A stretch of 52,253 nt of DNA from Pseudomonadales bacterium (GCA_021736745.1 JAIPFG010000001.1:1-52253), one strand, 5' to 3'; positions 32,663 to 44,611 are shown, numbered from the stretch's first letter. Translations and numbers: made by a program. The notes: generated by a model from the sequence alone, not told the origin.

Positions 32663-33529
32663 ATGCTTGAACCAACCGCACGTCAGTATCGCTCTTCGCG
32701 CTTAACGTTAAATTATGTCGATTGGGGTAATGAGGGAGCTCCAGTACTGATACTAATTCATGGCCGCATGGACCACTGTCGTAGTTGGGATTGGGTGGCA
32801 CGTCGATTAGCACATCGATACCGGGTTATCGCCCCTGATTTACGTGGGCATGGAGATTCCGACTGGGCAATTGGGAATGCCTATGCCATGTACGACTATA
32901 TCTATGATCTGATGGGGTTAATCGAACAGCTAAAATTAGCGTCTGTGAGCATTATCGGGCACTCATTGGGGGGCGGGATCGCTACTAAATTTGCAGGCGT
33001 CTGCCCCGAAAGAGTTAATCAGTTGGTGAGTATTGAAGGGCTGGGTTCAGCGCCGGCGATGGTAGCAAAGGAAGAGACGATGAGCACCGCCGACCATATG
33101 CTGACATTGGCGAGACAGCTAGAACGCTTGGCAGTTAAACCTTTGCGCGAGTTTGCTACAGAGGAAGCCGCGACAGCAAGGATGAAACAGGCCAACAGCC
33201 ATTTGTCGGATGAGCGTGCTCGCCATCTGGCACTCCATGGTATCCGTAATAATAAAGACGGTAATTTTTGCTGGAAATATGATCCTTATGTCGGTGTACA
33301 TCCCCCCTTTGATATATCCGCTAAAGACAGTCGTGAACTTTGGTCAAATATTGTTTGTCCGGTATTACTGGTCTGGGGGCAAGAGAGTTGGGCAAGCAAT
33401 CCATTAGAAGATGGCCGAATAAAATTTTTCCAAAATGCGCAGGTAGTGAGTATTCCTTCTGCTGGGCACTGGGTGCACCACGATCAGTTTGAGGAGTTTA
33501 TGGCGGCGGTTGAAACATTTTTGGAATAA
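32663..33529 (+). CDS. Alpha/beta-fold hydrolase
   Basis: HGRMDH, APDLRGHGDS, the nucleophile elbow GHSLGG, and a C-terminal GHWVHHD. Confidence 0.85.
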   Translation: MLEPTARQYRSSRLTLNYVDWGNEGAPVLILIHGRMDHCRSWDWVARRLAHRYRVIAPDLRGHGDSDWAIGNAYAMYDYIYDLMGLIEQLKLASVSIIGHSLGGGIATKFAGVCPERVNQLVSIEGLGSAPAMVAKEETMSTADHMLTLARQLERLAVKPLREFATEEAATARMKQANSHLSDERARHLALHGIRNNKDGNFCWKYDPYVGVHPPFDISAKDSRELWSNIVCPVLLVWGQESWASNPLEDGRIKFFQNAQVVSIPSAGHWVHHDQFEEFMAAVETFLE

Positions 33530-33530
33530 A

Positions 33531-34517
33531 TTATTCGGCATTAATATCGACGATCACACGTCCGCGTATTTCACCCTTGGTTATTTTTTCGGCATATTCG
33601 GGAATCTGAGAAAAACGAATGGTTTTGCTGATCTTTTCCCAGAATGTCGTTTCAAAAAGTTCAGATAATTGCTGCCACATATTCAACCGATGTTCCTTGG
33701 TGACGAGGGTGGAGTTTATTCCCAATAATTTAATAGCTCGCAGAATAAAAGGCATAACAGTAGTATGCAGCTCGTGGCTGGCGGCGAGGCCGCAACTGGC
33801 GATGGCGCCATTTCCCTTGGTTTCGGCGATGATTTTCGCGAGAATTTGACCACCGACATTATCCACGGCCCCCGCCCATTTTTGAGATTCCAGGGGGCGT
33901 GCACTCTGGGGCATCTGTTCTCGACTGATGATGTCTGACGCACCTAATTCGCGCAGATATTGGTGTAATTCTTCACGTCCGGTCACAGCGGTAACGGAAT
34001 AACCCATTCTTGCGAGGATGGCAATGGCAATGCTGCCAACGCCCCCTGCAGCACCAGAGACAACGATGGGCCCCTGGTCGGGGGTGATCCCGGCTTTTTG
34101 CAGGGCAGCAACGGCCAGCATTGCCGTAAATCCGGCGGTGCCTACCGCCATGGCGTCCTGTGGTCTGAAGGCGGTCGGGAGCTTGATCAGTGCCTCCGTA
34201 TCGACCCGAGCTTTTTGCGCATACCCACCGCAATAATCCTCGCCTAAACCCGCACCGGTTAGCACTACCGCATCACCCACCTTAAATTCGCTGGTGTCTG
34301 AATCAATCACCGTTCCGGCTAAATCAATACCCGGGATCATGGGGTAGGATCGGAGTATTTTGCCTTTCCCGGTAACGGCCAGACCGTCTTTAAAATTAAG
34401 GCTGGAGTAAGCCACTTCCACTAATACCGGTTTGTCAGGCAGTTGTTCTTCCCGCCAATGCTCGTAGGTTGCGCGATGTTGGCCATCCACTTTGTCGACG
34501 ACGATTGCTTTAAACAT
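33531..34517 (-). CDS. YhdH/AcuI-family NADPH-dependent enoyl (acrylyl-CoA-type) reductase, MDR superfamily
   Basis: MFKAIVV...SSLNFKDGLA...VSGAAGGVGS, with the N-terminal pattern typical of the YhdH/YhfP subgroup. Confidence 0.8.
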   Translation of the reverse strand: MFKAIVVDKVDGQHRATYEHWREEQLPDKPVLVEVAYSSLNFKDGLAVTGKGKILRSYPMIPGIDLAGTVIDSDTSEFKVGDAVVLTGAGLGEDYCGGYAQKARVDTEALIKLPTAFRPQDAMAVGTAGFTAMLAVAALQKAGITPDQGPIVVSGAAGGVGSIAIAILARMGYSVTAVTGREELHQYLRELGASDIISREQMPQSARPLESQKWAGAVDNVGGQILAKIIAETKGNGAIASCGLAASHELHTTVMPFILRAIKLLGINSTLVTKEHRLNMWQQLSELFETTFWEKISKTIRFSQIPEYAEKITKGEIRGRVIVDINAE

Positions 34518-34523
34518 ATTTGT

Positions 34524-34691
34524 CTACCTCATGGCGATCATTTCAAAGTCTTTTTTGGCGGCGCCACAATCCGGGCAAAGCCAGTCTTCGGGCACCTCTT
34601 CCCAGGGGGTTCCGGCGGGGATGCCTTCTTCAGGGCAACCTTTGGCTTCATCATAAATCCAGCCACAGACAATGCATTGCCACTTTTTCAT
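34524..34691 (-). CDS. Rubredoxin (55 aa; not in the supplied ORF track)
   Basis: My own translation is [55 protein letters not shown]. It has both CxxCG knuckles and the conserved Y, W and F residues. AGAGGA RBS upstream of the ATG. Confidence 0.9.
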
Positions 34692-34709
34692 ACGGTCCTC
34701 TGTTTCAAG

Positions 34710-35249
34710 CTATTTAAACAGTGTGACGATTTCTTTAAACACCGGATGATCTGCCGTTTTCATCAATTCAAACAGGCAGGTTTCGGTGCTGGTCAAGTGC
34801 GCTCCGGCGGTCTTCATTTTTTCTAGGCCCAACTGTTTATTTTCAGGTGAGCGCGAAGAGACGGCATCACACACTACATGGACTTCCTTTTGCAGCCGCA
34901 TTAAATCCAGTGCCGATTGATAAACACAGACATGGGTTTCAATGCCGGTGACCAACATCTGGTTTCTTCCACTTGCGACCATAGCCTGTAGGAGTTTGTC
35001 GTTGCCAAAGCAACTAAAACTGGTTTTGGCGATGGGTCTTAGGTCAGTGAGCAGTTCCGAAATTTCCGGTAATGTGGAGCCTAGTTTTTCCGGTATTTGT
35101 TCGGCCCAAAGAATGGGGATACCCATAGCCTGGGAGGCTTTAATCATGGTTTTCAGGTTGGCCAGGTAAGCTTCTTTATCGTGCATAAGCGTGGCGAGTT
35201 TACCTTGAACATCGATGATGACTAACAGTGAGTTTTCCGTAGTTAACAT
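34710..35249 (-). CDS. Isochorismatase-family (cysteine hydrolase) protein
   Basis: LLVIIDVQ, and VTGIETHVCV carrying the catalytic Cys. Confidence 0.85.
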   Translation of the reverse strand: MLTTENSLLVIIDVQGKLATLMHDKEAYLANLKTMIKASQAMGIPILWAEQIPEKLGSTLPEISELLTDLRPIAKTSFSCFGNDKLLQAMVASGRNQMLVTGIETHVCVYQSALDLMRLQKEVHVVCDAVSSRSPENKQLGLEKMKTAGAHLTSTETCLFELMKTADHPVFKEIVTLFK

Positions 35250-35276
35250 AAGGGGGCCTGCTGGATTAATGATTGA

Positions 35277-36068
35277 TCAGTCAGCATCTTTTATCTTACC
35301 GGTATCAATGAACCCATAGATACCACGTTTTGATACAGCATTAAGCCATTCTTTCAAATGGGCAATCTCCGCTGTATTGGATAGGTCTGACAAAGGTTTA
35401 TTTTCTTTGAGACAGCGAAAGGCCCTAGATAGCGCCTTATAACGTTCTCCTGAAATTCCCGCTCGGCGCAGGCCGATTGTATTCAGTCGGTAATGACGCA
35501 CGGGTGAACCACCGATCAGCGTATAGGGTAATACATCTTTACGAATACCAATGACTCCGGCGATCATAGCGAACGAACCAATACGACAGAACTGGTGGAC
35601 CATGGCGCCACCGCCGAAGAAAACGCGGTCGCCCACCTGGACATGACCGCCGAGCGTAGCGCTGGTGGCGAAGATATTGTGATTGCCAACCAGACAATCA
35701 TGGGCAACGTGGGCATTATTCATAAAGAAGCAATGGTTGCCGATCCGGGTGGCTTCGTTTTCCCTGGTGGCGCGGCTAATGGTGACTCCCTCACGAAACT
35801 CATTATGATCGCCTATTTCTACCCAGCTTGTGAGCGCTGGATTAAAGCTCAGATCCTGCGGTGATCCGCCAATAACAGCATTGGCATGCACACGATTCTG
35901 TTCCCCCATACGCACATGGGAGTGGATAATTGCATGGGCATCAATATGGCAGTTTTTTCCAATAACGACCTGCTCACCAACAATTGCATAGGGGCCGATG
36001 GTTGTTCCTTGGCCAATTTGAGCTGTGGGGGAGATGATTGCACTAGGGTGGATAGTGGAAGATGTCAT
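35277..36068 (-). CDS. LpxA-like acyl-ACP--UDP-GlcNAc O-acyltransferase paralogue (left-handed beta-helix)
   Basis: Hexapeptide repeats. NNAHVAHDCLVGN (compare E. coli INAHIAHDCTVGN with the catalytic His), MVHQFCRIG, and the C-terminal helical LpxA domain (NTIGLRRAG). Confidence 0.8.
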   Translation of the reverse strand: MTSSTIHPSAIISPTAQIGQGTTIGPYAIVGEQVVIGKNCHIDAHAIIHSHVRMGEQNRVHANAVIGGSPQDLSFNPALTSWVEIGDHNEFREGVTISRATRENEATRIGNHCFFMNNAHVAHDCLVGNHNIFATSATLGGHVQVGDRVFFGGGAMVHQFCRIGSFAMIAGVIGIRKDVLPYTLIGGSPVRHYRLNTIGLRRAGISGERYKALSRAFRCLKENKPLSDLSNTAEIAHLKEWLNAVSKRGIYGFIDTGKIKDAD

Positions 36069-36107
36069 ATGGGTGTTTTTTCGCTTAAGGGGTTCGATGG
36101 ATAAAGT

Positions 36108-36734
36108 TTAATCAATAATACGTGCCATTGCGCGTCGGCAATCGGCTATTTCCGTAAATCTGATGGCCTGGATGCCCAAATTATTTGCCGACTCAACATT
36201 GGCGGGCAGGTCATCAATAAAAAGGGTCTCTTCGGGGAGGATGTCAAAACGATTTAACATGTATTTAAAAATTTCAGGATCCGGTTTGGCGAGTTTGACC
36301 TCTGCCGAGACAATGATATCTTCAAAGAGATCAAAAAAGGTATAGCGTGAGGCGAGGTGCTCGAATATTTCCATACAAATATTCGAAAGGCAAAATAAGC
36401 GGTGTCCCTGTTGATGTAGCTCTGAGAGCAAGGCGACGGTCTCTTCTTTAGGAGTCAAATACGCCTTAATTGCATCAAGCAGTGCTTTTATTCTTGATAA
36501 AGGAAGGGCTGTATTGCGGGCAAAAGACTGGATTGCTTGTTGTTCTGTTATTGCTCCAAGATCGAGGCGTTTCCAGTCCTGGTGATGGAAAACCTGATCG
36601 AGTAACAGTTGTTTTTGCATTTCGTCCTGCGCAAATTGTTGAGCAATCTCTTCTGGACTCCAATGCACGAGTACAGCGCCTAAATCAAAAACTGTGTTTT
36701 TAATCGTGGCAGGTTTTAGCTTGAGTTGATTCAT
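36108..36734 (-). CDS. HAD-superfamily hydrolase (subfamily IA)
   Basis: Motif I VFDLGAVLV, motif II LSN, and the motif IV region FIDDLPANV. Confidence 0.85.
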   Translation of the reverse strand: MNQLKLKPATIKNTVFDLGAVLVHWSPEEIAQQFAQDEMQKQLLLDQVFHHQDWKRLDLGAITEQQAIQSFARNTALPLSRIKALLDAIKAYLTPKEETVALLSELHQQGHRLFCLSNICMEIFEHLASRYTFFDLFEDIIVSAEVKLAKPDPEIFKYMLNRFDILPEETLFIDDLPANVESANNLGIQAIRFTEIADCRRAMARIID

Positions 36735-36764
36735 TAAATACTTCTTTAATTAAAAATGAGATGG

Positions 36765-37412
36765 TTAGGGCTTAGTGCAAACACGTTGAAAGCCAGCCGC
36801 AATAAAAGGAATCATGTGGTCATAGGCTGCCCTAAAGTCAGTTGACTTACAAAGTCCCTTGGACAGTTTGTCGATGCGTCCGGTTTGTGCCAAGGTAAGG
36901 GTGAGTGCACCTGACAGGTTGTGATAGCACCAATAAATATCTTCTTCCTTAGCGCCGGGCAAAGCCTTCTTAAGCGCCTCGATAAATCGTGTGACCAGTG
37001 GGTCAAAATATTTGCTCATTAACTCCTTACCCCAAATAGGTGAGTTGTTGATATAGGCGACAAGCGCGAGATAGTGTTTCCAACCAGGATCAGCATTTTC
37101 CTGTTCCATTTCGAGTGGCCGCAAAAAAGCTTCAATAATTTTCTCAACGCTGGGGCCTTCCGTTCCGGATTCGGACTGGCATTTGAGTAACGCCTCCAGA
37201 CGCTCCTCATTCAGTATTTCAGCACGACGTAAAAAGACTGCATCGAATAATTCACGTTTTTTGCCAAAGTGGTAGCTGGCGAGGGCGACATCAACCTGCG
37301 CTTGGGCGGCAATCTGGCGTATGGTGACACCGTCAAAGCCATGCAAAGCAAAGAGTTCTTCCGCTGCATCAAGAATACGTTCTTTTTTTGATCTCTTTTG
37401 AGCGTTGTTCAT
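36765..37412 (-). CDS. TetR/AcrR-family transcriptional regulator
   Basis: N-terminal HTH ILDAAEELFALHGFDGVTIRQIAAQAQVDVALASYHFGKK. I prefer the ATG at 37412. The ORF track uses a TTG at 37424. Confidence 0.9.
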   Translation of the reverse strand: MNNAQKRSKKERILDAAEELFALHGFDGVTIRQIAAQAQVDVALASYHFGKKRELFDAVFLRRAEILNEERLEALLKCQSESGTEGPSVEKIIEAFLRPLEMEQENADPGWKHYLALVAYINNSPIWGKELMSKYFDPLVTRFIEALKKALPGAKEEDIYWCYHNLSGALTLTLAQTGRIDKLSKGLCKSTDFRAAYDHMIPFIAAGFQRVCTKP

Positions 37413-37441
37413 CGGTTTTTCCAAAAGAATATTTCAGGTCT

Positions 37442-37488
37442 TTAATAAGGCTTTATCCAGTGGTTGACAAAATTCAACAAATGTTGAA
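37442..37488. promoter_or_regulatory. Divergent promoter region with palindromic operator TTCAACAAATGTTGAA (37473-37488)
   Basis: Overlapping -35 hexamers: TTGACA on + at 37464-69, and TTGTCA on - at 37465-70 with a 17 nt spacer to TATTAA (37442-47). The operator abuts these. The same palindrome recurs at 41721, 41754 and 42019. Confidence 0.5.
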
Positions 37489-37536
37489 AACTGGGCTCTT
37501 CACATCATACCACAACTGATATAGAGGTCGAAGGAC

Positions 37537-39009
37537 GTGTCCCCAGAACTGTTTAAGTATCTTGTCACCGGTGTCTATGTCATCGCAACTTTTGTACTCT
37601 CCTGGATCGGAATGCGGCGAACTAATGACTTGCGCGGATTCTCCATCGGCAATAAGGATATGAATCCCTATCTGATTGGCGTTACTCTCGCGGCTTCCAT
37701 TGCTTCGACGGCAACCTTTGTTATCAACCCAGGTTTTGTTTACATCCATGGTCTGTCTGCCTTTCTGCATTATGGGGTGGCGGCATCATCCGGCATATTA
37801 GCCGCTTTTTTGATTCTCACCCGAGGATTTTTACGACTGGGGGATCAACATGGGGCGTTAACCATTCCGGAATGGATTTACCATCGCTACCAGCACCGTG
37901 GGTTTAGTTTGTTCTTTGCCTTTATTAATTTGCTTTCGATAACATTTGTCGTATTGATTCTGGTGGGCTGTAGTTTGCTGATGATGAGTCTTTTTGGTAT
38001 CGAGCGTGAAACTGCTTTGATATTGATTCTGCTCTTTGTTTTTTCCTACGTGCTGATGGGTGGTACCTATGCCCATGCTTATACCAATACCTTGCAGGGC
38101 GTGATGATGCTGGGCATCAGTTTGTTTCTGTTTATTAATGGTTTTAAATATTTTGATGACGGTATTCTTACGTCACTGGAACAATTAGGAGCCAATTACG
38201 CAAAGGTTTACAACCCCGATAGTAATCTCTACTACGATTTTTTCTCCGTATTTGGCAGTGGTTTTATCATTACTTTCGCGCTGATGTTGCAGCCCCATAT
38301 CCTGACCAAAACTCTGTATTTGCGTCACGAAGGGGATATTAATAAATTCATTATTACAACGGTGGTTGTCGGTTTTTGTTTTGCCTTGATGCTGATGCTG
38401 GGTTTCTATGCGCAAATGGCCGGTGTTGATGTTTCCAGTCAGGACCGAGTGGTGACAGAATATTTATTGGTAGAATTTTCCGGCTCCCATTGGGGACAAT
38501 ATATTTTGACCTTTGTTTTTATCACTTTACTTGCAGCCGGTATGAGTACCCTGGATGGCATTCTGGTTTCTCTCTCGGCAATGGTCGTTAACGATATTTA
38601 TCAACCCCTGTTTGGCGACAGTAACGGCCGTCATGGACTGTTGCTGTCACGTATTGTGTTGGTGCTGGTGGGTATTATTGCCGGTTTGTTGGCTTGGAAG
38701 CCACCTGAACTGGTAGGACTTTTTGCGCAAAAAGGGGTTTATGGCTTGGCCGCCGCGTCATTGGTGCCTCTCCTGTTTGGGGTAATGATCAAGCGCCAAC
38801 TACCACTATGGGTTATCGCTATGTGCGCTTTTTCCGCGCTGGCTATTCATCTCGTGTTTAATCTTTTCATGGGTGTCGCTAACCCGGCAGTTTCTGCCAG
38901 CTATGCAATTCTTATTTCATTTACCATGGGATTAGTTTCGCTTTGGGTGTTACCGTTGTTCGCTAAACCTAAAGTGCCCAAAGTGATAAATGAACCGGAG
39001 TCCCCTTAA
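37537..39009 (+). CDS. Sodium:solute symporter (SSS) family transporter
   Basis: 490 aa with about 13 TM helices. The N-terminal pattern and overall layout are typical of the PutP/PanF/ActP-type SSS family. GTG start. Confidence 0.8.
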   Translation: MSPELFKYLVTGVYVIATFVLSWIGMRRTNDLRGFSIGNKDMNPYLIGVTLAASIASTATFVINPGFVYIHGLSAFLHYGVAASSGILAAFLILTRGFLRLGDQHGALTIPEWIYHRYQHRGFSLFFAFINLLSITFVVLILVGCSLLMMSLFGIERETALILILLFVFSYVLMGGTYAHAYTNTLQGVMMLGISLFLFINGFKYFDDGILTSLEQLGANYAKVYNPDSNLYYDFFSVFGSGFIITFALMLQPHILTKTLYLRHEGDINKFIITTVVVGFCFALMLMLGFYAQMAGVDVSSQDRVVTEYLLVEFSGSHWGQYILTFVFITLLAAGMSTLDGILVSLSAMVVNDIYQPLFGDSNGRHGLLLSRIVLVLVGIIAGLLAWKPPELVGLFAQKGVYGLAAASLVPLLFGVMIKRQLPLWVIAMCAFSALAIHLVFNLFMGVANPAVSASYAILISFTMGLVSLWVLPLFAKPKVPKVINEPESP

Positions 39010-39291: not shown

Positions 39292-41589
39292 TTAGAACTG
39301 GTAGGAAACCCCTAAAGTCCAGGTTCTCGGTGGGCCATAGAACGCGAGTTCACCCGACCCCAGATTGTAGCCTCCGGTTTTATATTCTTTATCTTCAATA
39401 TTCTTCAAATAAAGACTCACCTGCCAGTGTTCATCGACAGAAAGCCAGTTGGCACTAGCGTCCCACAGGGTGTAAGAATCATCTTGATCGCAAGTACAGG
39501 TCACATTGTTGAAGTTTCGAGAGCCATCGCGATAAGCCACTGCCGTATTCAATGCAAGAGAGCCGGCGTTACCGAAGTCGAAATGGTAATTTAACCCCAA
39601 CTGTCCGGTCCAGTCTGGTGCGTTGAGCATTTCCCAGGTATCGGACACATCGACACCGGCTGAAATCACTTCGATTAACTCGGCGTTCATTTGGCCAACT
39701 GACAAAGAAATATTGAAAGCCTCTGTGACCTGCGCCAGCGCCTCAACTTCGAAGCCTTTGATTTCCGCGGTACCGGCATTCACGACGTCGGATGAGAAGA
39801 AAACAGGTGCCGGCTGAGCCGTTTGAACGGTTAGCTGCATATCGTCGTAGTCCATGTCGAATAGAGTGATGTTTAAGCGTAACCGATCATTGAACAATTG
39901 GCTTTTAATACCAACTTCCAAGGTTTCTACTGTCTCTGGATCGTAACCATTAGCGACATTCGGGTTAAGTGCCGCATTACCCCGCATATCAAAACCACCG
40001 GATTTGAATCCTTCCGCGTAGCTGACATAAACCATAATATCTTCTGTAATTTTCCAATCGACCTTGATCGAAGGACTGACTTCGCTCCAGCTGTCATCGG
40101 CTTCATCATCACTGATATTGGTAGAAGCCCCTAAGAAAACATCATCCGCAGGATTACCAAAGGTAAAGCCTGAACCTTGTGTCGTAGTGTAAGGGAATGA
40201 ATTACTGGTGATATAGGATATCCGCTGGATATTGGAGTTTTTGTCATCGCGGGTAACACGAGCGCCTGCGGTGATCGTGATCGTTTCGGTGAGATTAAAA
40301 CTACCGTTAAAATAAGCAGATAAACTTTCGGTATCGACATCACCGCCGATCGCCAGATCAAAATGATTCCCATCCATATAGGGAGGCGCGTTTAGCACGA
40401 CGTCAAATGCGCCGGCGGAATTACCTTCAAAATAATAAATACCTCCGACCAGAGTAAAGCGCTCAGCGGTGTAATTTACCTGAAGTTCATGGGATTGTTG
40501 TTCATCCGAATATTTGGCGGGAACATCAAAGGCATCCAAGGGTGTTGATTCAAAATCAATAAACTGCTGTGTTTCACCTTCGCGGTCGGCATACACATAC
40601 TTGATAGAAAGCGCATCATTAATGTCATATTTAGCGGTAATAGAAAACCCTTCGTTCTCGACATTAGACTTATGAGAAGTCCCACAGGCGCCATCATAGG
40701 GATCGCTCGATGCGAGAAATGGCAAACCGGTTGCAGGGTGGGTCAACAGTGTTTGGCTGGACTGGGAGCCGCAGAGTTGGTTGGACTCGTCATCTGTTTT
40801 GTCGGCGGCGAAACGTAAAAAAAGCTTTTCGGTGGGTGTGTATTCAACATTCAGACGATAGACCAAGACATCTTTTTCATAGTTTTCTTCGCTATCGGTG
40901 AAAGTGCCAGTGGCTATATCGTAACCCGTATCCACATCACCGTAACCATCCCGATCCATCTTGGCAACAGCGGCGCCAACATAGAGTTGATTTTCGATCA
41001 GGGGTAATTGGCCGGAGATCATGACGTCCTGCTGATTATCTGTGCCAACGGCCAGTTTTATTTTAGCGGTGGCGTCTCCGGTCATTTTTTTAGTAATGTA
41101 TTTTAGCGCACCGCCGACGGTATTTTTTCCATAAAGGGTACCCTGTGGACCCCGCAGGATTTCGATACGATCGACATCAAAAACTTCTAATACGGCGGCT
41201 TGGGGGCGTGCGTAATAGACATCGTCAACATAAACCCCGACGCCAGGTTCGAAGCCCCAGAGGGGGTCTTGCTGGCCGACTCCACGGATATAGGCGGTTA
41301 AGGTTGAGTTGGTTGCGCGACTGGCGCGTAGCTGTGTATTCGGTGAGCTTTTTTCCAGGTCGATAATGCTGGTGTACCCTTTATTCTCCAATTCTAAAGC
41401 GCTGAATGCCGTAATGGAAACAGGCACTTCTTGCTGGTTTTGCTCACGTTTTTGTGCAGTGACAATGATCTCCTCCAGACTGGGGTTGCTACCCTCTTTA
41501 GCCCAGCTAATACCCGGATTGATTGCCGCGATACTGGTGGCAGCGATAAATGTGACAAGTGGTTTCTTGCTGAGATGTGAAATATTCAT
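39292..41589 (-). CDS. TonB-dependent outer-membrane receptor
   Basis: Signal peptide, plug (EEIIVTAQKRE...DRIEILRGPQGTLYGKNTVGG), and C-terminal GVSYQF. Confidence 0.9.
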   Translation of the reverse strand: MNISHLSKKPLVTFIAATSIAAINPGISWAKEGSNPSLEEIIVTAQKREQNQQEVPVSITAFSALELENKGYTSIIDLEKSSPNTQLRASRATNSTLTAYIRGVGQQDPLWGFEPGVGVYVDDVYYARPQAAVLEVFDVDRIEILRGPQGTLYGKNTVGGALKYITKKMTGDATAKIKLAVGTDNQQDVMISGQLPLIENQLYVGAAVAKMDRDGYGDVDTGYDIATGTFTDSEENYEKDVLVYRLNVEYTPTEKLFLRFAADKTDDESNQLCGSQSSQTLLTHPATGLPFLASSDPYDGACGTSHKSNVENEGFSITAKYDINDALSIKYVYADREGETQQFIDFESTPLDAFDVPAKYSDEQQSHELQVNYTAERFTLVGGIYYFEGNSAGAFDVVLNAPPYMDGNHFDLAIGGDVDTESLSAYFNGSFNLTETITITAGARVTRDDKNSNIQRISYITSNSFPYTTTQGSGFTFGNPADDVFLGASTNISDDEADDSWSEVSPSIKVDWKITEDIMVYVSYAEGFKSGGFDMRGNAALNPNVANGYDPETVETLEVGIKSQLFNDRLRLNITLFDMDYDDMQLTVQTAQPAPVFFSSDVVNAGTAEIKGFEVEALAQVTEAFNISLSVGQMNAELIEVISAGVDVSDTWEMLNAPDWTGQLGLNYHFDFGNAGSLALNTAVAYRDGSRNFNNVTCTCDQDDSYTLWDASANWLSVDEHWQVSLYLKNIEDKEYKTGGYNLGSGELAFYGPPRTWTLGVSYQF

Positions 41590-42141: not shown

Positions 42142-43734
42142 TTGGAGAAACATAGCGTGAAATCAATTCAATCCCCAGCGCCTCTGCTGCCAGAAATACT
42201 TTATTTGCATAGCAAATGGTTAGGGACTAAGGAGGCTGTGATTTGTGGCGATCGACGTCTGAGCTGGATGGAGTTTGGGGCGCGAATTAATGCGGTAGCG
42301 AACAGTTTTATCGCCCAGGGATTGCAAACTGGCGACAAGGTCATCGTGCTCATGGGCAACGGCTTACCAATGCTGGAAACGCTATTTGGCATAATGGTGT
42401 CTGGCGGTGTTTCTGTTCCGATTAACCTGTCTGTTTCGACGGAGGGTTTGAATAATATGATCAAGGACGCTGCCGCAAAGTTTGTCGTGGCAACGGGAGA
42501 TCAGTTTCAGCGTATTGAATCAATGGCAGCGGACCTACCGGAAGATCATTGTTCTGTTCGTATAGTCGCCCAGGGAAACCCGGAGAGCGGCATTGTTAAG
42601 GGCTGGGTAGATTATGAAAAGTTTGTTGCCGCTGGATCACCGTATTTTCCAGATGTTGCGATACAGCCTACGGACTACCTTAATGTCATTTATAGTTCAG
42701 GAACCACCGGGTTACCTAAGGGCATTGTACATACGCATCAGGGACGTCGCGATTGGGCTTATGATATGGCCATTGCCTTGCGCTATCATGGCAGTGCAAA
42801 AACGCTGCTTACCATTGGCCTGTATTCCAATATTTCTTGGGTTGCCATGTTAACAACGTTGCTGGCAGGGGGTACTTTGGTGATCCATCAGCATTTTGAT
42901 GCAAGACAGTTTTTGCGCACGGTGGAGGAAGAACGCATTACCCATACTGCCATGGTACCGATTCAGTTCCAACGGGTGATCGAGGCCTACCAGGAGCAAT
43001 CCAGCGACCTTTCATCAATGCAGGCAATGATGGCTTGTGGTTCGCCTTTGTTTGAGCCCCTGAAAAAAGCCATATTTGAGGTTTTCTCCTGTGGCATTAT
43101 TGAACTCTATGGCCTGACGGAAGGCATTATCACGACACTTGAACCGGAAGAGGCCGAAGGTCGATGGACTTCTGTAGGCAAACCGCTGATTGGCACGGAT
43201 ATCAAAATCCTGGGAGACGATGACCTGGAAGTGGCACCAGGAATGAGTGGCGAAATAGTTTCCCGCGGAAGGATTAGCATGCCGGGTTATCTTAATCGGC
43301 CGGACGCCACAGAGGAAGCCATTTGGTTGGATGAGGCCGGGCGACAATGGCTTCGTTCAGGCGATATCGGAAGAATTGATGAGCAGGGTTATCTGTATAT
43401 TGTCGACCGTAAAAAAGACATGATTTTATCCGGTGGACAAAACATTTATCCGCAGGATATCGAAGCGGTATTGATTCAGCATGAGGCGGTGAATGAAGTG
43501 GCGGTGATTGGCGCGCAGAGTCGTCGCTGGGGAGAGACGCCAATTGCCATTGTCGTGCCTGAGACAAGTTCTATCGGTTCACCTGACGAAATTCTTGAGT
43601 GGTGTAATGCGCAATTGGGTAGGCAGCAACGTATTACCGATTTGATTTTGACCAATGCTTTACCGCGCAATCCCAATGGCAAAATACTGAAGCGCGAACT
43701 GCGCATCCAGTACGGAGAAAAAGTGTATGACTGA
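42142..43734 (+). CDS. Acyl-CoA synthetase / class I adenylate-forming enzyme
   Basis: YSSGTTGLPKG, YGLTE, SGDIG, and the C-terminal NPNGKILK lysine motif. The start is TTG at 42142 or GTG at 42157. Confidence 0.9.
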   Translation: MEKHSVKSIQSPAPLLPEILYLHSKWLGTKEAVICGDRRLSWMEFGARINAVANSFIAQGLQTGDKVIVLMGNGLPMLETLFGIMVSGGVSVPINLSVSTEGLNNMIKDAAAKFVVATGDQFQRIESMAADLPEDHCSVRIVAQGNPESGIVKGWVDYEKFVAAGSPYFPDVAIQPTDYLNVIYSSGTTGLPKGIVHTHQGRRDWAYDMAIALRYHGSAKTLLTIGLYSNISWVAMLTTLLAGGTLVIHQHFDARQFLRTVEEERITHTAMVPIQFQRVIEAYQEQSSDLSSMQAMMACGSPLFEPLKKAIFEVFSCGIIELYGLTEGIITTLEPEEAEGRWTSVGKPLIGTDIKILGDDDLEVAPGMSGEIVSRGRISMPGYLNRPDATEEAIWLDEAGRQWLRSGDIGRIDEQGYLYIVDRKKDMILSGGQNIYPQDIEAVLIQHEAVNEVAVIGAQSRRWGETPIAIVVPETSSIGSPDEILEWCNAQLGRQQRITDLILTNALPRNPNGKILKRELRIQYGEKVYD

Positions 43735-44611
43735 ATATCAGGATGTCTGGTATCCATCGGAGGATGGATTAACTCTGTATGCCCGGGATTATGAGCATCC
43801 CAAGGCCAGTCTTAATCTTCTCTGTATGCATGGCTTAACCCGCAATTCTGCAGACTTTGAAGCACTCTGTGATCATTTACATCCGCGTTATCGTCTGGTC
43901 GTGGTAGATCAGCGCGGGCGAGGTCGATCTGAGTATGACCCCGTAACCAGTAACTATCATCCGGGTACTTATGTGAAGGATATGTTCAGGCTGATTGAGC
44001 ATTTAAATCTCGATAATCTGGTGCTGATCGGCACTTCCCTGGGTGGATTGATGGCTATGATAATGGCAAGCCTGTTACCGGGAAAATTCAAGGGTGTGGT
44101 GTTAAATGATATTGGGCCAGTAATTGAGGCGGAGGGCATTTCCCGTATTCAGGGCTATGTTGGGAAAGGCTTGCCGGTAACAAATTGGGATGAAGCAATC
44201 GCCCAGGCACGCGCCATTAATGGTGCTGCGCTGATTGATTATAGCGAAGAGGACTGGTGGAATTTTGCACGTAAACTCTATCGTGAAAATGAAGAAGGCG
44301 TACCCGTTCTGAATTATGACCCTGCAATTGCCGAGCTGATGAATAACAGCCAGGCAAAGGCGGTACCGCCGGACTTATGGTTTGCCTTTGACGCGCTAAA
44401 AAATACGCCTTGCTTGGTTGTTCGGGGGGAAAGCTCAGATATTCTGAGTAAAGGCTGTGTCGAGGAAATGCAGCGTCGAAAATCGGATCTTCAGGTAGTG
44501 GAAATTGTTAACCGTGGACATGCGCCGATGTTGGATGAACCGCAAGCACTTGCTGCCGTCGATCAGTTTATGCAGGGAGTGGAGAAATCAGTAACAAAAT
44601 CCTTATCCTAA
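43727..44611 (+). CDS. Alpha/beta-fold hydrolase
   Basis: HGLTRNSADF, DQRGRGRS, the nucleophile elbow GTSLGG, and a C-terminal GHAPML. 8 nt overlap with the upstream ligase gene. Confidence 0.85.
   Translation: MTEYQDVWYPSEDGLTLYARDYEHPKASLNLLCMHGLTRNSADFEALCDHLHPRYRLVVVDQRGRGRSEYDPVTSNYHPGTYVKDMFRLIEHLNLDNLVLIGTSLGGLMAMIMASLLPGKFKGVVLNDIGPVIEAEGISRIQGYVGKGLPVTNWDEAIAQARAINGAALIDYSEEDWWNFARKLYRENEEGVPVLNYDPAIAELMNNSQAKAVPPDLWFAFDALKNTPCLVVRGESSDILSKGCVEEMQRRKSDLQVVEIVNRGHAPMLDEPQALAAVDQFMQGVEKSVTKSLS

Follow-up and report, generated by a model that had tools for sequence, protein, structure and literature searches.

LpxA enzymes partnered with GnnA and GnnB are described in Leptospira interrogans and Acidithiobacillus ferrooxidans (Sweet et al., 2004, cited in PMC5644692), and the roles assigned here to GnnA and GnnB follow the summary given in PMC5644692. 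In this study, we relate that system and other described ones to a six-gene unit headed by a TetR repressor gene at positions 33531-37424 of a 52,253-nucleotide stretch of DNA (the window) from a Pseudomonadales bacterium (GCA_021736745.1, JAIPFG010000001.1:1-52253), which belongs to a metagenome-assembled genome (MAG G000; 2.5 Mb assembly, 83% complete). The unit combines enzymes that the initial annotation could place in no common pathway. We favor, with better than even though far from full confidence, the explanation that it is a mosaic joining two evolutionary modules and not one pathway: an uptake regulon governed by the repressor (module A) and a set of five downstream genes particular to the family (module B), among which is a second LpxA of the GnnA/GnnB type (LpxA2).

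LpxA2 resembles the Leptospira LpxA (3hsq/3i3a) in its catalytic histidines, in the small residue that stands for Lys76 and in loop length, and it resembles the Leptospira and Acidithiobacillus system in that its nearest homologues are followed by gnnA/gnnB and that gnnA/gnnB occur in relatives of the window's genome. Unlike in that system, LpxA2 is a second copy besides a canonical cluster, detached from gnnA/gnnB and located behind a TetR gene. Differentially expressed early lipid A paralogues are known in Legionella pneumophila (lpxA, lpxD, and lpxB) and in Francisella (LpxD1 and LpxD2), and they are paralleled here by two LpxA and two LpxD at separate loci, with one copy positioned for regulation. 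However, the place that temperature or growth phase takes as a signal would be filled in our case by a TetR of the nutrient type.

For the repressor itself, the closest counterparts are PsrA of Pseudomonas aeruginosa (2fbq) and NicR2 of Pseudomonas putida (5fgl), with which it shares the TetR_N and TetR_C_30 domains as well as autoregulation and control of carboxylic-acid catabolism genes, both of which are predicted in our case. Its operator, of the CAAC-N4-GTTG type, resembles the PsrA box. In contrast to these two regulators, the regulon here comprises uptake genes for a probable 3-hydroxy acid instead of fadBA or nicotine genes. In the acuR-acuI-dddL genes of Rhodobacter sphaeroides, the gene of a TetR regulator precedes that of an acrylyl-CoA reductase; there, as in the window, a TetR-family repressor heads a unit containing a YhdH/AcuI reductase, but the repressor in the window belongs to a different TetR subfamily, no dimethylsulfoniopropionate lyase is present, and the adjacency of YhdH is older than the arrival of the repressor.

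Six co-directional minus-strand genes were recovered by listing open reading frames (36765-37424, 36108-36734, 35277-36068, 34710-35249, 34524-34691, and 33531-34517), and the gaps of 30, 39, 27, 18, and 6 bp first reported for them were exact. All six reading frames were intact, catalytic motifs included, when the translations were inspected, and Pfam and NCBIfam upheld each of the original family calls (TetR, HAD, LpxA-like, isochorismatase, rubredoxin, and YhdH/AcuI). In the direction of reading, the genes are:

36765-37412, minus strand: TetR repressor of the PsrA/NicR2 type, 215 aa, carrying a TetR_C_30 ligand domain (Pfam, conserved ATG)
36108-36734, minus strand: HAD-IA hydrolase, 208 aa, with DLG in motif I (Pfam/NCBIfam)
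35277-36068, minus strand: LpxA2, predicted second LpxA of the gnnA/gnnB-linked (UDP-GlcNAc3N) type (cut-offs, tree, neighborhood, co-occurrence, signature)
34710-35249, minus strand: isochorismatase-family cysteine hydrolase, 179 aa (Pfam/NCBIfam)
34524-34691, minus strand: rubredoxin, 55 aa, with CxxCG and CPxCG intact (Pfam, translation)
33531-34517, minus strand: YhdH/AcuI-family NADPH enoyl (acrylyl)-CoA reductase (NCBIfam)

Judged by its sequence, LpxA2 is a second true LpxA with intact catalytic motifs and of the GnnA/GnnB-associated type. It scored above both curated LpxA cut-offs (TIGR01852, 294.2 vs. 226 bits; NF003657, 279.2 vs. 231 bits) and again above cut-off in a profile search of the genome (278.7 bits). 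It retains the motifs NNAHVAHDC, GGHV, and VHQFC, which contain the equivalents of His125 and His122, His144, and His160, residues whose roles are known from Escherichia coli LpxA. The gene is flanked by the HAD and isochorismatase genes and lies outside the canonical lpxD-fabZ-lpxA-lpxB cluster, the usual though not required place of an LpxA gene, which sits elsewhere in the genome on contig C233. The protein shares 38% identity with the genome's own canonical LpxA (LpxA1) and 51-60% identity with LpxAs of Methylococcales, Burkholderiales, and others.

Neighborhood, phylogeny, phyletic pattern, and sequence signature together underlie our assignment of UDP-GlcNAc3N as the substrate, which LpxA2 most likely N-acylates to start lipid A with amide-linked chains. 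Of the 12 loci closest to LpxA2 that lie outside the family (L022-L033), 8 have gnnA directly downstream of the LpxA gene, accompanied or not by gnnB and lpxB, and the same holds for a Methylococcus genome and a metagenomic contig (L055 and L090). A scan of the neighbors at the gnnA-less homologue loci L025 and L028 was uninformative owing to high-GC DNA with unreadable frames or to unrelated genes. Maximum-likelihood analysis placed the LpxA2 rows of the family within a supported 16-row clade (95/93) whose nine non-family rows are all gnnA-linked, and LpxA1 grouped with fabZ-linked gammaproteobacterial enzymes. Across the family sample, which consisted of 12 genomes in five genera (the window's genus being g1), eight genomes had both LpxA2 and gnnA and two had neither, and gnnA together with gnnB was present in G013-G016 and other relatives. 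The gnnA candidate of the complete congener G015 had UDP-GlcNAc 3-dehydrogenase as its top NCBIfam match and matched only 7bvj/7bvk in the PDB (245.7 bits).

The sequence signature separates the two kinds of LpxA in our alignment. The residue equivalent to Lys76 is Lys in 10 of 11 fabZ-linked rows, whereas all 24 rows that are in the clade or gnnA-linked have Ser, Gly, Ala, or Thr at this position and a loop that is one residue longer (PQDLSFNPA in LpxA2 and PQDLGFNQQ in 3hsq, compared to QDLKY plus a gap in canonical enzymes). The best PDB match of LpxA2 was the L. interrogans LpxA (3hsq; 191 bits), which has Gly at the Lys76 position and equal loop length and which is reported to be a UDP-GlcNAc3N-selective enzyme. 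In our interpretation, the small residue at Lys76 and the longer loop may set substrate selectivity. The only LpxA of canonical context in the sample with Gly at the Lys76 position was that of locus L045 (Arenicellales, fabZ-linked).

A second LpxD was also found in the window's MAG (contig C239:39635-40567; L088 9588-10637), with 282 bits against a cut-off of 242.5. It is monocistronic, adjoins a MoxR/DUF58/VWA/BatD operon, occurred in each of the three g1 genomes that we searched, and was absent from G012 and G008. Given the presence of both LpxA2 and this second LpxD, the genus duplicates both early lipid A acyltransferases. Our literature search found no described LpxA paralogue with the neighbors that LpxA2 has in the window.

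The TetR protein matched TetR_N (57 bits) and TetR_C_30 (128 bits) in Pfam, and its nearest solved structures were NicR (5fgl) and 2fbq. It did not reach the PsrA equivalog (101.5 bits vs. a cut-off of 300), which makes it a relative of PsrA and not PsrA itself. Given that an in-frame ATG at 37412 is kept in three relatives, unlike the TTG at 37424, translation probably starts at the ATG and yields a protein of 215 aa. The candidate control elements are:

37504-37531, minus strand: candidate sigma-70 promoter of the TetR-led unit, TCGACC-16 nt-TG-TATGAT (consensus scan)
37473-37488, no strand: operator palindrome TTCAACAAATGTTGAA, one of four exact sites in the genome
41721-42034, no strand: three operator copies (41721, 41754, and 42019) between the receptor and ligase genes (exact-site search)

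The entire 2.5 Mb assembly contains exactly four copies of TTCAAC-N4-GTTGAA, all of them in the window (37473, 41721, 41754, and 42019). The copy at 37473-37488 lies just downstream of the TetR -10 element and within the spacer of the divergent symporter promoter, and every genome of the genus has it at this position. This layout of one plus three operators also occurs in the near-complete congeners G013, G014, and G015, with invariant half-sites and variable spacers. In G012, a related genome without this TetR, there is a single site, as expected by chance. Both hexamers of the candidate TetR promoter were invariant in an alignment with three relatives. Given that the TetR strand carries the conserved TCGACC-16-TATGAT just upstream of the operator, repression by roadblock combined with autoregulation of TetR would be the simplest reading of this arrangement. 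In G015, two DDE transposase genes (522 aa each) split the receptor/ligase locus from the symporter/TetR locus (L011 2421-6237), and the four operators are retained.

The genes tied to the repressor by these operators in the window are:

37537-39009, plus strand: sodium:solute symporter (SSF), divergent from TetR, regulon member that also adjoins TetR orthologues in other families
39292-41589, minus strand: TonB-dependent receptor, regulon member (gene calls and conserved neighborhood)
42142-43734, plus strand: acyl-CoA ligase, regulon member (gene calls and conserved neighborhood)
43727-44611, plus strand: alpha/beta hydrolase ABH2, regulon member overlapping the ligase gene (gene calls and conserved neighborhood)

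The link through a shared operator to the symporter, the TonB receptor, and the ligase/hydrolase pair, already proposed in the initial annotation, is conserved throughout the genus and beyond. Outside the genus, we examined 13 further TetR loci, 10 of which hold orthologues (at least 58% identity) and three of which hold paralogues (49-56%). TetR orthologues with 58-73% identity were found in Halieaceae (Halioglobus), in Arenicella, and in several of the order's other families (eight order-level loci). Exact operators were located beside TonB receptor and hydrolase genes in 10 of 10 orthologue loci, and the symporter was present in 9 of 10, the tenth (L082) beginning at a contig end. Operators and uptake genes were absent from the three loci with TetR paralogues. 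The genes for HAD, LpxA2, isochorismatase, rubredoxin, and YhdH were found in none of the 10 TetR-orthologue loci outside the genus.

These loci also point to a substrate. The four loci that lack a ligase gene (L075, L076, L079, and L080) have a gene of the short-chain dehydrogenase/reductase (SDR) family adjoining TetR, and three of the four SDR proteins scored as 3-hydroxybutyrate dehydrogenase (TIGR01963, 333-361 bits vs. a cut-off of 307), the SDR of L080 being unscored. Loci with an acyl-CoA ligase (L070-L074, L082, and the window at 42142-43734) do not have 3-hydroxybutyrate dehydrogenase. Ligase and dehydrogenase look like alternatives, that is, two routes for one substrate. The role of module A is most likely uptake and first processing of 3-hydroxybutyrate-type acids or oligomers, as suggested by these neighborhoods.

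The five genes downstream of TetR have a different distribution. In genus g1, the order is TetR-HAD-LpxA2-isochorismatase-rubredoxin-YhdH, and all four other genomes of this genus keep the whole arrangement. Genus g5 has genes for a protein binding cyclic nucleotide monophosphates (cNMP), HAD-IIA, Rdx, LpxA2, rubredoxin, and YhdH in a row, with a convergent gene for the alpha/beta hydrolase ABH1 and no TetR. In genus g2, the row is limited to Rdx-HAD-LpxA2, and genus g4 has isochorismatase-NUDIX-MBL-YhdH with convergent ABH1, and neither LpxA2 nor rubredoxin. When co-conservation was surveyed across genomes, as the initial annotation had proposed for its operon, the gene set stayed together in one genus only.

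Properties of the individual products were as follows. The HAD protein scored 63 against a cut-off of 29.4 in TIGR01509, and its motif I reads FDLGAVL, in which the second Asp of DxDx(T/V) is absent; the same DLG variant is found in E. coli YihX, which is an active enzyme. Its nearest structure was the HAD domain of bacterial drimenol synthase (9m7d, 99.8 bits), followed by weaker matches to YihX glucose-1-phosphatase (56 bits) and the phosphatase domain of soluble epoxide hydrolase, which hints at a lipid or sugar-1-phosphate as a possible substrate. The isochorismatase-family protein was closest to ISOC/MAR1-type proteins, with candidate catalytic residues in the Asp of VIIDVQ, the Lys of the IAKTSF region (assigned by eye), and the Cys of THVCV, and an orthologue with 61% identity lies near YhdH in a relative without LpxA2. 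The YhdH protein is probably an acrylyl-CoA-type reductase: it exceeded the cut-off of TIGR02823 (425 vs. 297), fell just short of that of the AcuI equivalog (426.9 vs. 440), and matched the structures of E. coli YhdH (332 bits) and AcuI 5gxe (302 bits).

The rubredoxin gene is a pseudogene in the complete congener G015, where it is truncated, has a TAG stop (L017 9365-9487; C1:1066091-1066210) and, given this, dispensable. A role of rubredoxin as the partner of an alkane hydroxylase was considered and rejected, as no FA_desaturase/AlkB family gene was found in G000 or in the near-complete related genomes G015 and G012. The only other rubredoxin domain in G000 is the C-terminus of a flavodiiron NorV-like protein of 488 aa (C149:6654-8120; L069 1438-2904).

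Given the differing arrangements among genera, the stop codon in rubredoxin, and the lack of an AlkB partner, we regard the five downstream genes as a drifting family-level neighborhood whose members appear to have been gained and lost independently, and not as a co-inherited pathway. The mix of enzymes seemed odd because a widespread uptake repressor is juxtaposed with an unrelated, family-specific neighborhood. From the self-contained uptake and transformation system that was initially envisaged, the regulon link and the uptake genes stand, while the five enzymes, never found with TetR orthologues outside the genus, drop out. The view of the enzyme mix as one unprecedented pathway is not supported, and its LpxA-like member is explained as a second LpxA of the GnnA/GnnB type.

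The six genes probably form one transcription unit, as the short spacing and the absence of terminators are compatible with one transcript. Scans for promoters and terminators within the unit did not rise above shuffled controls and gave no terminator that was convincing, and the gap between TetR and HAD is only 11 bp in the relative G015. Base composition gave no signal of recent horizontal transfer of the unit (gene GC content of 43-53% vs. 46.6% for the genome). The neighbor at the distal end of the unit is:

32663-33529, plus strand: alpha/beta hydrolase ABH1, convergent with YhdH (1 nt between stop codons)

The convergent pairing of ABH1 and YhdH is conserved in three genera (g1, g4, and g5). 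In the window, ABH1 ends at 33529 and the YhdH stop codon is at 33531-33533, so that terminators cannot fit in the single nucleotide between them.

In the mosaic that we favor, module A would consist of an autoregulated PsrA/NicR2-type TetR and its TTCAAC-N4-GTTGAA operators, with predicted targets in several marine gammaproteobacterial families that include a sodium:solute symporter, a TonB receptor, an alpha/beta hydrolase, and either a ligase or 3-hydroxybutyrate dehydrogenase. Module B would comprise the HAD phosphatase, LpxA2, the isochorismatase-like hydrolase, rubredoxin, the YhdH/AcuI reductase, and the convergent hydrolase, and the repressor gene appears directly upstream of it in genus g1 alone. 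There, a ligand would free TetR from the operator just past its -10 element, with probable read-through into the five passenger genes.

Several observations weigh against parts of this interpretation. Among the family genomes, G007 has gnnA and gnnB without LpxA2 (this genome is 75% complete), and neither gnnA nor gnnB was found in the window's own MAG, in which the syntenic site, beside topA and an NfeD/SPFH pair, coincides with the end of contig C104 and the start of contig C156. We attribute this absence to an assembly gap; on C156, the NfeD gene next to the site breaks off at base 56. The 3-hydroxybutyrate role of module A is drawn from gene neighborhood in other taxa, and 3-hydroxybutyrate dehydrogenase was not found in the window's genus, so that the ligase route must be used here if our substrate guess is right. 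LpxA2, rubredoxin, and YhdH remain adjacent in two genera, which could reflect function instead of inherited synteny. Finally, read-through from the TetR promoter is predicted from spacing.

Other explanations account for some of the same data. The six genes, along with those for the symporter, receptor, ligase, and hydrolase, could constitute a single dedicated uptake and transformation pathway for one small molecule, as the tight co-directional spacing, the common operator that binds the loci together, and the full arrangement kept in all four other genomes of the genus would suggest. However, the repressor and uptake genes never carry the five enzymes outside the genus, the five enzymes vary independently inside the family, rubredoxin is a pseudogene in G015, and LpxA2 tracks gnnA and not the uptake genes, and we therefore give this explanation very little credence. 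Similarly improbable is that the operator controls the TetR gene only and that the five downstream genes are separately regulated from promoters inside upstream coding sequence. While in other taxa the repressor gene is monocistronic or has a dehydrogenase gene as its only partner, and g5, g2, and g4 express module B genes in the absence of this repressor, the gaps after TetR measure 11-30 bp with no terminator-like hairpin there, and the unit contains no more promoter-like matches than chance would give.

A further alternative is a lipid A remodeling sub-module made up of LpxA2 and the neighboring phosphatase, with the small redox proteins as possible members, that has come under a nutrient-sensing repressor in this genus; the availability of its ligand, a 3-hydroxy acid, would then alter lipid A. 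In three genera, LpxA2 is preceded by a HAD gene, with two different HAD subfamilies in that slot, and the HAD in the window is nearest to lipid/isoprenoid-phosphate phosphatase domains and a sugar-1-phosphatase; the second LpxD of the genus genomes and the position of the operator between promoter and unit would also fit. On the other hand, no operator was found near gnnA, gnnB, or LpxD2, the HAD-LpxA2 adjacency is limited to one family and may be inherited synteny, and a soluble HAD phosphatase has no known biochemical tie to early lipid A steps. We consider this sub-module doubtful. Its strongest form, in which a 3-hydroxy-acid-sensing repressor directly gates a GlcN3N-type LpxA and a lipid/sugar-phosphate phosphatase, such that the lipid A backbone would switch from ester- to amide-linked with nutrient supply, is in our view decidedly unlikely.

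Our results remove an apparent mystery, as the seemingly impossible enzyme mix can be read as a mosaic whose oddest member is a known kind of enzyme. In the sample, a small residue at Lys76 combined with a loop one residue longer is a simple marker that separates gnnA-linked from canonical LpxAs. The re-annotation also provides a well-defined operator of TetR with its regulon, whose substrates are probably of the 3-hydroxybutyrate type, and on the strength of the second LpxA, lipid A with amide linkage (GlcN3N) is predicted for an uncultured marine family of Pseudomonadales. If read-through from the TetR promoter takes place, lipid A synthesis would at its first step be under an unusual nutrient-linked control, and if the repressor gates LpxA2, carbon scavenging would be coupled to outer-membrane chemistry in these bacteria.

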